Shown piece after piece: positions 1,009 through 24,879 of a stretch of 41,987 nt of DNA; position 1 is the first letter of the stretch, and every line of letters begins with the position of its first letter. The notes beneath the pieces are model-generated. The model saw nothing but the letters and a program-made list of their open reading frames with translations. It made no database searches and had not been told where the DNA came from. The position numbers and the translations under genes were made by a program. Source of the stretch: a virus (taxonomy: Duplodnaviria; Heunggongvirae; Uroviricota; Caudoviricetes); IMG/VR virus record IMGVR_UViG_647533160_000006, positions 1-41,987 of that record, one strand, 5' to 3'.

Positions 1009-1083
1009 GTCCTCTTAGTTAAATGGATATAACGAGCCCCTCCTAAGGGCTAATTGCAGGTTCGATTCCTGCAGGGGACACCA
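1009..1083 (+). tRNA. argW: tRNA-Arg (anticodon CCU)
   Basis: 75-nt sequence GTCCTCTTAGTT...GCAGGTTCGATTCCTGCAGGGGACACCA; acceptor stem pairs, anticodon loop CTCCTAA, T-loop GGTTCGATTCC, encoded CCA end. Confidence 0.9.
1069..1083 (+). other. attL core (prophage left junction inside argW 3' end)
   Basis: 15-bp CTGCAGGGGACACCA at the 3' end of argW is repeated exactly at 40284-40298; integrase gene follows ~160 bp downstream. Confidence 0.6.
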
Positions 1084-5798: not shown

Positions 5799-5866
5799 GT
5801 CAATATTTCCTAATCCGATTTGTTGATACCGAAGCCCTGACTGTTCCCGCAGTTGGGGCTTCAACT

Positions 5867-22507: not shown

Positions 22508-22980
22508 ACCTCAATCTCTCTGACCGTTCCGCCTGCTTCTTTGAATTTTGCAATCAGGTTGTCAGCCTTATGCTCGAACTGACCATAACCAGCGCCCGGC
22601 AGTGAAGCCCAGATATTGCTGCAACGGTCGATTGCCTGACGGATGTCACCGCGATCAATCATCGGTAAAGCGCCACGCTCTTTAATCTGTTGCAATGCCA
22701 CAGCATCCTGGCTTTTCGGAGAGAAGTCTTTCAGGCCAAGCTGCTTACGATAGGCATCCCACCAACGGGAAAGAAGCTGGTAGCGTCCGGCGGCTGTTGA
22801 TTTGAGTTTGGGGTTTAGCGTGACAAGTTTACGAGGGTGATCGGAGTAATCAGTGAATAGCTCACCACCTACAATGACGTCATAACCATGATTTCTGGTT
22901 TTCTGACGTCCGTTATCAGTTCCCTCTGACCACGCCAGCATATCGAGGAACGCCTTACGTTGATTATTGATTTCCACCAT
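22504..22980 (-). CDS. R: Endolysin R (lambda-type lytic transglycosylase)
   Basis: 158-aa [39 protein letters not shown]... matches recalled lambda R. Confidence 0.9.
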
Positions 22981-23287
22981 CTTCTACTCCGGCTTTTTTA
23001 GCAGCGAAGCGTTTGATAAGCGAACCAATCGAGTCAGTACCGATGTAGCCGATGAACACGCTCGTTATATAAGCGAGATTGCTACTTAGTCCGGCGAAGT
23101 CGAGAAGGTCACGAATGAACCAGGCGATAATGGCACACATCGTTGCGTCGATTACTGTTTTTGTAAACGCACCGCCATTGTATCTGCCGCGAAGGTACGC
23201 CATTGCAAACGCAAGGATTGCCCCGATGCCTTGTTCCTTTGCCGCGAGAATGGCGGCTAACAGGTCATGTTTTTCTGGCATCTTCAT
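22964..23287 (-). CDS. S: Holin S (class I, lambda S107-like)
   Basis: 107-aa [39 protein letters not shown]... with dual-start motif, matches recalled lambda S. Confidence 0.9.
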
Positions 23288-24115
23288 GTCTTACCCCCAA
23301 TAAGGGGATTTGCTCTATTTAATTAGGAATAAGGTCGATTACTGATAGAACAAATCCAGGCTACTGTGTTTAGTAATCAGATTTGTTCGTGACCGATATG
23401 CACGGGCAAAACGGCATGAGGTTGTTAGCGCAGCCTCTTGCCACCCGCTTTCACGAAGGTCATGTATAGAAGGCCGCAGCGTAACTATCACTGATGAATT
23501 CAGGATAGCCAGTGGCTACGGCTCAGTTTGGGTTGTGCTGTTGCTGGGCGGCGATGACGCCTGTACGCATTTGGTGATCCGGTTCTGCTTCCGGCATTCG
23601 CTTAATTCAGCACAACGGAAAGAGCATTTATGGCTCGCATCGCGGGAAAAAGCCCACGGTAGAGAGTCGAACTCTACAAATACTCTTACCTGTTGTGCGC
23701 TACGTTTCGTGGAGCTAACGGCGACGCTAGTACCGGTCTATGCGTCGCACCCTTGAGGGATTTACTAAGGCAACATGCCCGTTGTTACCCACTCAATTGG
23801 ACCCTCCCCGTCGCCATCTGGGTCTAGTCAGGAATCGAACCTGCCGAGGGTACATTTGAATGGGTGCCCATTATTAATCACACCGGGCCAGTGCGCCGAA
23901 TTTGGTTGCGGGGAGTCGGAAGACCCCGTGATTTTGGTTTCTTAGGCCGCCATCAACATCAAATCATCGTTTGCATTTATCTTTGTGGTCAGTTTCTAAA
24001 AACCCGCAAAGTCGCCAACTCTGACGAAAACTATCGTTGTGCTGCCACAACGATAAGAGCACTCGGTGCATTTAAGCCAAGCCCCATAAGGGAGAATGCT
24101 CTTACCTGTTGTGCA

Positions 24116-24150
24116 AACGCAAAAAGCCCCGAGCTATTAACTCAGGGCTT
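24116..24150 (-). terminator. tR'-like intrinsic terminator of the pR' leader
   Basis: Minus-strand read AGCCCTGAG-TTAATAG-CTCGGGGCT followed by TTTTTGCGTTTG, about 30-60 nt downstream of pR'. Confidence 0.7.
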
Positions 24151-24184
24151 TATTTAACGAGTGCATTTATCCATCGTTGAGTCA

Positions 24185-24213
24185 AATTTACCCAACTTTA
24201 TTCAATAAGTCAA
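24185..24213 (-). promoter_or_regulatory. Late promoter pR' (with Q-utilisation region)
   Basis: Minus-strand read TTGACT-17 bp-TAAATT immediately downstream of Q, near-identical to the lambda pR' sequence as I recall it. Confidence 0.75.
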
Positions 24214-24255
24214 TATCATGTCGTTAATATGTTGCCATCCGTGGCAATCATGCCG

Positions 24256-24879
24256 CTAACGTGTGACCGCATTCAAAATGTTGTCTGCAATTGACTCTTC
24301 CTTGTGGCATTGCACCACCAGAGCGTCATACAGCGGCTTAACAGTGCGTGACCAGGTGGGTTGAGTAAGGTTTGGGATTAGCATCGTTACAGCGCGATAT
24401 GCGGCGCTTGCTGGCATCCTTGAATAGCCGACGCCTTTACATCTTCCGCACTCTTTCTCAACAACTCTCCCCCACTGCTCTGTTTTTGCTATATCAACCG
24501 CACGACCTGTACCGTGGCAATCTCTGCATCTTGCGCCCGGCGTCGCGGCACTACGGCAATAATCCGCATAAGCGAATGTTGCGAGTACTTGCAGTACCTT
24601 TGCCTTAGTATTTCCTTCAAGCTTTGCAACGCCACGGTATTTCCCCGATACCTTGTGTGCAAATTGCATCAGATAGTTGATAGCCTTTTGTTTGTCGTTC
24701 TGGCTGAGTTCATGCTTACCGCAGAATGCAGCCATTCCGAATCCTGCTTGTGATTGCGCCATCCCCATAGCAGCCATCACATCAGTACCGGAAAGAGAGT
24801 CAGAAGCCGTAGCCCGTGGTGAGTCGCTCATCATCGGGCTTTTTGGCGAATGAAATTTAGCTACGCTTTCGAGTCTCAT
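24256..24879 (-). CDS. Q: Late antiterminator Q
   Basis: 207-aa MRLESVAKFHSPKSPMMSDSPRATASDSLSGTDVMAAMGMAQ... matches recalled lambda Q. Confidence 0.9.
   Translation of the reverse strand: MRLESVAKFHSPKSPMMSDSPRATASDSLSGTDVMAAMGMAQSQAGFGMAAFCGKHELSQNDKQKAINYLMQFAHKVSGKYRGVAKLEGNTKAKVLQVLATFAYADYCRSAATPGARCRDCHGTGRAVDIAKTEQWGRVVEKECGRCKGVGYSRMPASAAYRAVTMLIPNLTQPTWSRTVKPLYDALVVQCHKEESIADNILNAVTR

Follow-up and report, generated by a model that had tools for sequence, protein, structure and literature searches.

The window analysed here is the complete 41,987-nt stretch of IMG/VR record IMGVR_UViG_647533160_000006. It carries a λ/P22-type prophage, and we describe an RNA element located between the late promoter and the holin gene of this prophage. 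The late genes are encoded on the minus strand, which is also the RNA strand of the element: Q at 24879..24256, the holin gene S at 23287..22964, and then R and Rz. In brief, the element has a conserved core of approximately 175 nt (24037..23861, minus strand) placed between hairpin modules. The core looks like the message part of a transfer-messenger RNA (tmRNA), the product of ssrA, and it is preceded by a 5' arm that is antisense to the tmRNA of the host. We suggest, with about an even chance of being right, that the element is an RNA derived from tmRNA. It would pair with the tmRNA of the host, mask the tag template there and probably substitute a message of its own. The conservation, the covarying structure, the translated-type tag frame and the complementarity to ssrA were computed from the sequences. 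The start of the late operon is organized as follows.

24213..24185, minus strand: late promoter pR', TTGACT-17-TAAATT, same as the λ sequence
24151..24123, minus strand: tR'-like intrinsic terminator that ends a very short leader and stands in place of the λ 6S RNA body

The original prediction, made from the sequence, described this order of pR', very short leader and tR'-like terminator, and placed DNA that λ lacks behind it; both parts are borne out. Aligned with λ, the window is identical through pR', then diverged, and identical again from GTGCTCTTTCCGTTGTGCTGAATTAAG on. By this alignment the segment is DNA that is extra to λ, or replaced relative to λ, at the hotspot for late-leader cargo that separates pR'/tR' from the holin gene. 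ARAGORN at default settings and Rfam at gathering thresholds called no tRNA or tmRNA within 23300-24400, which agrees with the earlier failure to fold a full cloverleaf, and we rejected a tRNA gene or pseudogene as a candidate, as a cloverleaf with an anticodon arm was not detected by the tRNA models. The plus-strand open reading frames (ORFs) of the segment gave zero Pfam family matches and a single marginal match in PHROGs, phrog_14500 for the ORF at 23535-23753 (E 0.0025, 16 aa). A protein-coding reading was therefore rejected, since these ORFs have no credible family, and where other phages have 'hypothetical proteins' annotated across the element, these vary in length and are missing from most records. 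The segment is thus non-coding on ORF search, as first proposed. Of the expected tRNA- or toxin-type cargo, the hotspot location stands; the cargo appears to be neither, and is read here as a tmRNA-like RNA with an anti-tmRNA arm.

The core is present in 448 of 50,697 phage records and in 137 of 5,426 complete E. coli genomes (approximately 2.5%). It is 75-91% identical across Skatevirus, Nonanavirus, Drexlerviridae, Schitoviridae, Ackermannviridae, P1 and HK620, and the named carriers include P1, HK620 and Det7/Vi1-like, N4-like and T1-like phages. Searched with a profile of 62 related sequences, the window gives a single match (24032..23858, E 1e-52) and λ gives zero. The core is without annotation everywhere, except for occasional and inconsistent 'hypothetical proteins' on the opposite strand. 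In lytic phages a TTGACA-17-TAGATT promoter is located just upstream of the core in the same orientation, which makes the arm the 5' end of the RNA. The core often adjoins tRNA genes, and in other phages it is also found beside tRNA clusters and between structural genes on the opposite strand. Phage P1 (AF234173, positions 1500-1690 of our locus L169) has a full copy that is unannotated in the record. It is located in the C1-controlled ban leader, after the 'dicF-like region' and approximately 270 nt before the genes for tRNA-Asn/Thr. Because the same core has its own promoter in lytic phages, has varied neighbours and occurs in the P1 ban leader, we regard it, on comparative grounds, as a portable and widespread phage RNA gene and not a λ-specific leader; the copy in the window is embedded in a late operon. 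A scan of genome contigs found the core in just two species representatives (Pseudocitrobacter and Pantoea), few for a host-range test. In a related provirus a Sib antitoxin RNA (RF00113, 107.8 bits) is encoded approximately 250 nt downstream of the core (locus L040, 1600-1748).

In the window the core and its arm consist of the following features.

24033..23997, minus strand: 5' anti-tmRNA arm, three collinear blocks, antisense to ssrA 68-106
24033..24023, minus strand: arm block 1, UAGUUUUCGUC, reverse complement of ssrA 96-106 (codons D-E-N-Y), 11/11
24015..24010, minus strand: arm block 2, GCGACU, reverse complement of ssrA 86-91 (AGUC followed by GC, resume codon), 6/6
24010..23997, minus strand: arm block 3, UUUGCGGGUUUUUA, reverse complement of ssrA 68-81 (3' strand of pseudoknot 1 (PK1), A-run), 13/14
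23996..23975, minus strand: 22-nt linker GAAACUGACCACAAAGAUAAAU, a diverged sense copy of ssrA 68-89, ending in the AUA resume context
23974..23942, minus strand: tag frame without start codon, GCA AAC GAU GAU UUG AUG UUG AUG GCG GCC UAA, encoding ANDDLMLMAA and a stop
23955..23929, minus strand: helix-5 equivalent; codons 7-8 (UGAU) pair with AUCA past the stop, and the stop codon is in the loop
23928..23896, minus strand: pseudoknot A, stem CGGGG/CCCCG, loop CCGA pairing with downstream UCGG
23895..23866, minus strand: pseudoknot B, stem CGCAC/GUGUG, loop GCCC pairing with GGGC after the invariant AUUAAUAAU

The tag frame was compared among 162 loci, which contain 42 unique tag regions. All of these run for 10 codons from GCA and have a stop at codon 11, and all three stop codons are used (TAA in 39, TAG in 2 and TGA in 1). 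The tags include ANDDLMLMAA, ANDDVVLMAA, ANEEMYLAVA, ANDEQFLAVA and, in P1, ANDDLMMVAA; the tag of E. coli is ANDENYALAA. Synonymous variation is found at Ala10 (GCG/GCC/GCT/GCA) and Val5 (GTT/GTG/GTC/GTA), and as CTG/TTG, TTC/TTT and TAT/TAC, and the +1 and +2 frames have early stops at variable places. Fixed length, fixed stop position and synonymous variation together point to a translated frame that lacks a start codon.

The resume context, AUAAAU before GCA, is near-invariant. In it U(-5) and A(-4) align with ssrA U85 and A86, and AUA with A84-U85-A86. The arm ends 22 nt before the phage resume codon, a spacing of the same length as in the host (ssrA 68-89). With the setting -ps80, ARAGORN picks up the resume consensus together with these tags. 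At relaxed thresholds Rfam yields weak matches to permuted-tmRNA models, centred on AUAAAU and the tag frame, and they recur in 5 other loci. These matches do not reach the score of a family member (RF04321, 22.9 bits with gathering at 47; RF01849, 20.8 bits with gathering at 50), and the scores are similar in other loci.

The arm was compared with E. coli K-12 ssrA (363 nt) using blastn-short on the reverse strand. Its target at ssrA 68-106 takes in the 3' strand of PK1 and the A-rich resume determinant, together with the resume codon itself and the first six codons of the tag, and is conserved among 19 enterobacterial ssrA alleles. A family profile matches ssrA twice, on the reverse strand at 68-101 (E 0.0014) and on the forward strand at 81-126 (E 0.01; profile positions 55-100, the tag region). 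RNAduplex on the whole element gave an unrealistic result, and the analysis was limited to the arm. Over 83 arm variants the duplex with ssrA has a mean energy of -35.6 kcal/mol, compared with -16 to -21 for shuffles (0-2 of 300 attain it), and the mean against the phage's own tag region is -24.6 kcal/mol. All 98 variants of arm plus tag have a perfect match of 7-11 nt to the invariant host tag codons, and one of 4-6 nt to their own variable tag. The arm by itself is unstructured (-8.7 kcal/mol, z -0.2), and a full-length cofold retains its pairing with ssrA 75-105, with a ddG of -15.4 compared with -7.4±2.4 for shuffled arms. Among common variants of the arm, GCGGCU, GUGGCU and GCGAUUAU keep or even improve its pairing with host tmRNA, by G·U or newly formed pairs. 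By these measures the complementarity to ssrA is extended, statistically unusual and family-wide, and lies in an accessible arm where an internal partner does not explain it.

Two shorter complementarities were noted elsewhere in the element. The sequence CCCUCGGCA (23842-23850, minus strand, just 5' of a T-loop) is perfectly complementary to ssrA 46-54, the 5' strand of PK1, and the hairpin loop CGGUACUA (23727-23734, minus strand) of an optional 3' domain, 'ext', is complementary to ssrA 308-315. Each of these is non-significant alone, and they are not collinear. The arm also has alleles. A minority variant, CUUUUAAG (CUUUUAA type), matches the minority host ssrA allele GUUAAAAG, and the majority pair is CUUUUUAG (CUUUUUA type) with GUAAAAAG; loci L021, L058 and L060 were set against L180, L195 and L234 in this comparison. 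This match may reflect co-variation between phage and host.

The same complementarity would also be expected of a pure antisense RNA or decoy, whose arm inactivates tmRNA by occlusion or RNase III cleavage, so that trans-translation is shut down, and whose body titrates tmRNA-binding factors such as S1 and is never decoded. A tRNA-like domain is absent from most members of the family, as such an inhibitor would allow, and there is a precedent in the mycobacteriophage DS6A molecule, which consists of a tRNA-like domain only and is a reported inhibitor of tmRNA (PMC4131195). We consider this explanation unlikely, because it leaves unexplained the fixed length of 10 codons, the stop at codon 11 with all three stop codons, the synonymous variation, the resume context and the 22-nt spacing.

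The structure of the core was analysed with helices drawn by hand on 62 diverse aligned sequences; slid partner columns and 500 shuffles served as controls. In these helices 94.9% of the cells are paired, compared with 38-47% when the partner columns are slid, and 153 cells have changed on both sides, compared with 45.9±12.7 in the shuffles (0 of 500 attain 153). Compensatory pairs are found in all five helices, that is helix 5 and two stems each of pseudoknots A and B. In the helix-5 equivalent, AU and GC covary 31:31; in pseudoknot A, 6 of 9 pairs have compensatory changes; and pseudoknot B has length-compensated variants, GCCC/GGGC, GCCCUGA/UCAGGGC, GGCGGGAG/CUCCCGCC and AUCC/GGAU. Run automatically on the raw alignment, RNAalifold was uninformative, owing to the pseudoknots and to 5' ends that are out of register. 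The linker of pseudoknot B, GAUUAAUAAUGGGC (23879-23866), is near-invariant in all relatives, and it contains UAAUAA, as does the double-stop region of E. coli ssrA (GCUUAAUAACC).

A PK1 upstream of the resume codon was not supported in this alignment. The candidate stem CUUUGCGG/CCACAAAG is 94% paired with zero compensatory change, and varies only by breaking. We dropped this internal PK1, as it shows no covariation and the region is antisense to host ssrA instead. A second candidate stem, AGUUUU/AGAAACU, hardly varies in either strand, and its 5' strand is out of register between the forms aligned.

Compared with the one-piece tmRNA of E. coli (SsrA; RF00023), the phage RNA has the same start-less tag of 10 codons, GCA AAC GA … AA and a stop, an AUA resume context, a helix-5-like stem whose loop contains the stop codon, H-type pseudoknots past the tag, and sequence homology to ssrA 81-126. 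It differs in that the conserved unit has no acceptor stem, T-arm or CCA and no supported PK1, has two downstream pseudoknots and not three, and has an optional extra domain and an antisense 5' arm; it is also far under the Rfam and ARAGORN thresholds. By membership, the core is not a tmRNA: it has the features of the message domain, and lacks the tRNA-like domain, PK1 and the model score.

The core is flanked by the following features.

24114..24046, minus strand: hairpin module A, minimum free energy (MFE) -33.1 kcal/mol, z -4.1; S5 arm GCACAACAGGUAAGAGC (first copy of a 16-mer repeat), inner loop with GGGGCUUGGCUUAAAUGC, S3 arm GCUCUUAUCGUUGUG
24032-24041 / 24046-24055, minus strand: perfect 10-bp hairpin, UAUCGUUGUG GCAG CACAACGAUA
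23866..23786, minus strand: hairpin module C, diverged 19-bp stem, MFE -34.2 kcal/mol, z -2.2
23790..23700, minus strand: optional 3' domain 'ext', GGGUAACAACGGGCAUGU.GCCUUAGUAAAUCCC, then two hairpins that covary by eye
23698..23611, minus strand: hairpin module B, MFE -40.1 kcal/mol, z -5.9; S5 arm (second 16-mer copy), loop with T-loop hairpin GUAGAG UUCGACU CUCUAC, hairpin CGUGGG CUUUUU CCCGCG and AUGCGAGCCAUAAAU, S3 arm GCUCUUUCCGUUGUGC, where λ homology resumes

The original prediction took the segment for an insertion bounded by 16-bp direct repeats and carrying a tRNA T-arm fragment, and the repeats themselves are as described. The 16-mer CTCTTACCTGTTGTGC occurs exactly, and twice, in the window (23683-23698 and 24099-24114), two copies are reached in 0 of 100 shuffles, and the repeat grows to 20 nt at 95% identity. 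Read on the RNA strand the 16-mer is GCACAACAGGUAAGAG, here named S5. Each S5 copy pairs with a downstream arm, S3 (GCUCUU(A/U)(U/C)CGUUGUG), which is duplicated as well. In λ (locus L115, ~990-1070) there is one such module, directly after tR', and no core. Because λ has the module once and the partner arm S3 is also duplicated, the 16-mers are, on this comparison, not target-site duplications; each is the 5' arm of a long hairpin module, of which the window has two copies. The bounding of an insertion by repeats thus falls away, and a mobile element with a target-site duplication was rejected, since the 'empty' λ site already holds the repeat once, as a hairpin arm. We found no transposase or terminal inverted repeats for the segment.

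The other two motifs pointed out earlier are also present, the T-arm motif GCAGGTTCGATTCCTG on the minus strand (23844..23829) and the perfect 10-bp hairpin. The T-arm motif belongs to a T-loop hairpin, GGCAGGUUCGAUUCCUGAC, in the variable loop of module C, the third hairpin module, and is not read here as a tRNA fragment. The 10-bp hairpin shares bases with S3 of module A and with the start of the 5' arm, and is confined to the sub-lineage of the window. It is in our view highly improbable that the segment is decaying cargo, whether a remnant of a tRNA or of ssrA, or a small mobile element flanked by target-site duplications of 16 bp. The exact repeats, the T-loop motif and the lack of an ORF would fit such an origin, but the repeats are arms of a hairpin that λ has once and that unrelated phages have too, there is no cloverleaf, and the core is under strong purifying and compensatory selection in 448 phage records.

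The modules are not restricted to this operon. The type of module A is seen also in loci L004 and L031, and the module is also found in unrelated lytic phages. Among approximately 165 related loci the arms (CACAACAGGUAAGAGCAUU … AGUGCUCUUUCCGUUGUGG) are highly conserved, and the loops, of 30-120 nt, belong to more than 40 unrelated types. T-loop hairpins are present in some of the loops, in several module types. The 'ext' domain is found in about 25 of 36 unique motif matches, in several phage groups. We suggest that the modules are probably processing or stability elements that would release or stabilise RNA from the Q-antiterminated late transcript.

The pR' leader is 86% complementary to the S3 arm of module A. 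It also has a second GAUAAAUGCA (24158-24171, minus strand), which is the same as the decamer of the resume site at 23981..23972. The complementarity of leader and S3 may provide an alternative pairing that couples Q-dependent read-through to folding of the element. It could likewise belong to a cis-acting late-leader structure that serves late transcription or the processing or stability of mRNA (antitermination, RNase III sites), with an incidental likeness to tmRNA. The site between pR'/tR' and the lysis genes fits this, as do the very stable modules, one of which λ keeps in the same place. We nevertheless regard a purely cis-acting role as very unlikely, because the core is promoter-driven in lytic phages, has varied neighbours and is located in the ban leader of P1, and because the coding signature and the ssrA complementarity would go unexplained.

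A tRNA-like domain (7-bp acceptor stem with G3·U70, T-arm and 3' (A)CCA) was not found in the conserved unit. With ARAGORN at -ps80 the halves of a tRNA-like domain are inconsistent between loci, the Rfam tRNA and tmRNA models give just T-loop fragments of 11-17 nt, and a T-loop near the core is absent in P1 and in most lytic-phage copies. A one-piece tmRNA across modules A and B was considered, in which GGGGCUU in the loop of module A and UAGCUCC-A-CGA at the end of 'ext' would give G3·U70 and A73. It was ruled out, as the 3' piece belongs to a covarying local hairpin (GCUCC/GGAGC, GCCAC/GUGGC) and has no partner in promoter-driven relatives.

Module B resembles a permuted tRNA-like domain in its order. 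It runs from a P2 strand through a T-loop hairpin, a 6-bp hairpin, and AU and 13 nt to a P2 strand, and in locus L060 a module of this type, upstream of the core, has the same order. Read as a tRNA-like domain, these parts would be a P2-like stem, the T-arm, a closed hairpin resembling an acceptor and a strand resembling a D-loop. The element could then be an autonomous, circularly permuted (two-piece) phage tmRNA, with the T-loop module (here B) as a tRNA-like domain that is cleaved in the loop and aminoacylated. T-loops in several module types speak for this, and so does the fact that the permuted-tmRNA models of Rfam are the best, though sub-threshold, matches. Two-piece tmRNA genes borne by phages are likewise often located by tRNA genes. 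However, module B lacks an encoded CCA, its G·U pair corresponds to 4:69 and not 3:70, its stem starts with C-G, and the T-arm is not formed in its MFE fold. Most members of the family, including P1, MK54, Skatevirus and λ-type, have T-loop-free modules, the loops are of the many hypervariable types described above, neither ARAGORN nor Rfam calls a tRNA-like domain, and the antisense arm is left unexplained. A two-piece tmRNA is therefore distinctly unlikely.

Based on these observations, we return to the RNA that pairs with host tmRNA and brings a message of its own. It would be transcribed late, by Q-antiterminated transcription in the window, from its own σ70 promoter in lytic phages and from Pban in P1, and a discrete RNA would start near GAUAGUUUUCG. 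The phage RNA would then pair with host tmRNA, and the pairing would mask the host tag template. The duplex would tether the phage template to the alanyl-tRNA-like domain of the host and to SmpB, and rescued proteins would get the phage tag in place of ANDENYALAA. From the computed features we infer pairing in vivo, and we favour a template swap over simple inhibition because of the coding signature and the host-identical spacing of 22 nt. In its most specific form, a chimeric tmRNA would be assembled in trans: docking over approximately 31 bp would displace the host template and bring the phage resume codon to the 22-nt distance seen in the host, and the charged tRNA-like domain of the host and SmpB would deliver the phage tag. 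We put this version forward tentatively, as a possible arrangement that has somewhat less than an even chance.

Several points weigh against the proposal. Accumulation of the RNA, its pairing with tmRNA and decoding of its tag are predictions from computation. Some arm variants, such as GCUGG, GCGUG and GCGCU, mismatch E. coli ssrA, and taken block by block the E-values are modest for a single target of 363 nt. The possible co-variation of arm and ssrA alleles is not linkable to known hosts, just one genome having had both the element and an ssrA flank. As there is no conserved tRNA-like domain, decoding of the tag needs an arrangement in trans that may be sterically difficult, and helix 5 and pseudoknots 2-4 of the host would stay attached in it. 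Finally, the phage tags are still degron-like (…LMAA, …LAVA), which would blur the benefit of a swap.

The architecture was not matched in Rfam 15 or in the literature that we searched. Complete phage tmRNA genes, as in Melnitz, the mycobacteriophage Bxz1 group and Bacillus phage G, encode a chargeable tRNA-like domain and are detectable with ARAGORN (PMC9004378, PMC4131195); the RNA described here either lacks that domain or has a non-canonical one, and it has an antisense arm in addition. Mycobacteriophage DS6A has a tmRNA fragment that is only the tRNA-like domain and is a reported inhibitor of host tmRNA (PMC4131195, PMC11915505). It is the mirror image of the phage RNA: DS6A has a tRNA-like domain without a message, and the RNA here has a message and pseudoknots without a tRNA-like domain, plus base-pairing to the host. 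Since the known phage tmRNAs are complete genes or the DS6A fragment, a tmRNA-derived phage RNA with an anti-tmRNA arm appears to be new.

Two further systems are related by mode of action or by location. AgvB and AsxR, reportedly described by Tree et al. in 2014, are said to be anti-small RNAs (anti-sRNAs) encoded by prophages of enterohaemorrhagic E. coli (EHEC). They are likewise lambdoid-prophage RNAs that act by pairing with or mimicking host regulatory RNA, but their targets are Hfq-dependent sRNAs, and they are not known to contain a reading frame or to resemble tmRNA in architecture. The λ pR' leader (6S RNA) occupies the same slot, as do the tRNAs and toxin genes that Stx phages carry between Q and S, and late expression is Q-dependent there too. 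λ also shares one copy of the flanking hairpin module. The window differs in having the core, which λ lacks, and in that its cargo is not a tRNA and not a protein gene.

Elsewhere in the window, the only tRNA is tRNA-Arg(CCT) (1009-1083, plus strand), which is probably the attachment site of the prophage. A P22-type sar antisense RNA is located at 5800-5866 on the plus strand (Rfam, 71.6 bits). The sar RNA and the tRNA-Arg(CCT) together identify the prophage as a P22-immI / λ-late hybrid.

The modules pose a puzzle of phage leaders in their own right, with conserved arms, hypervariable loops and a function that could be that of a processing site, a recombination linker or a cargo scaffold. The RNA itself has been missed by Rfam- and ARAGORN-based annotation of phages; it is found, unannotated, in classic model phages and in about one in forty complete E. 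coli genomes. Lambdoid, P22-hybrid and Mu phages reportedly depend on tmRNA, according to work attributed to Retallack, Withey and Friedman and to Ranquet, and the phage RNA offers a testable route into this dependence. If our interpretation is true, it is a new kind of host-takeover RNA, a tmRNA derivative that targets the ribosome-rescue RNA of the host by base pairing, and a natural design for re-programming trans-translation. Enterobacterial phages of diverse kinds, lytic as well as temperate and with P1 among them, would then rewrite the quality-control tag of the host in infection, and the degradation tags in infected cells may differ from the host default.

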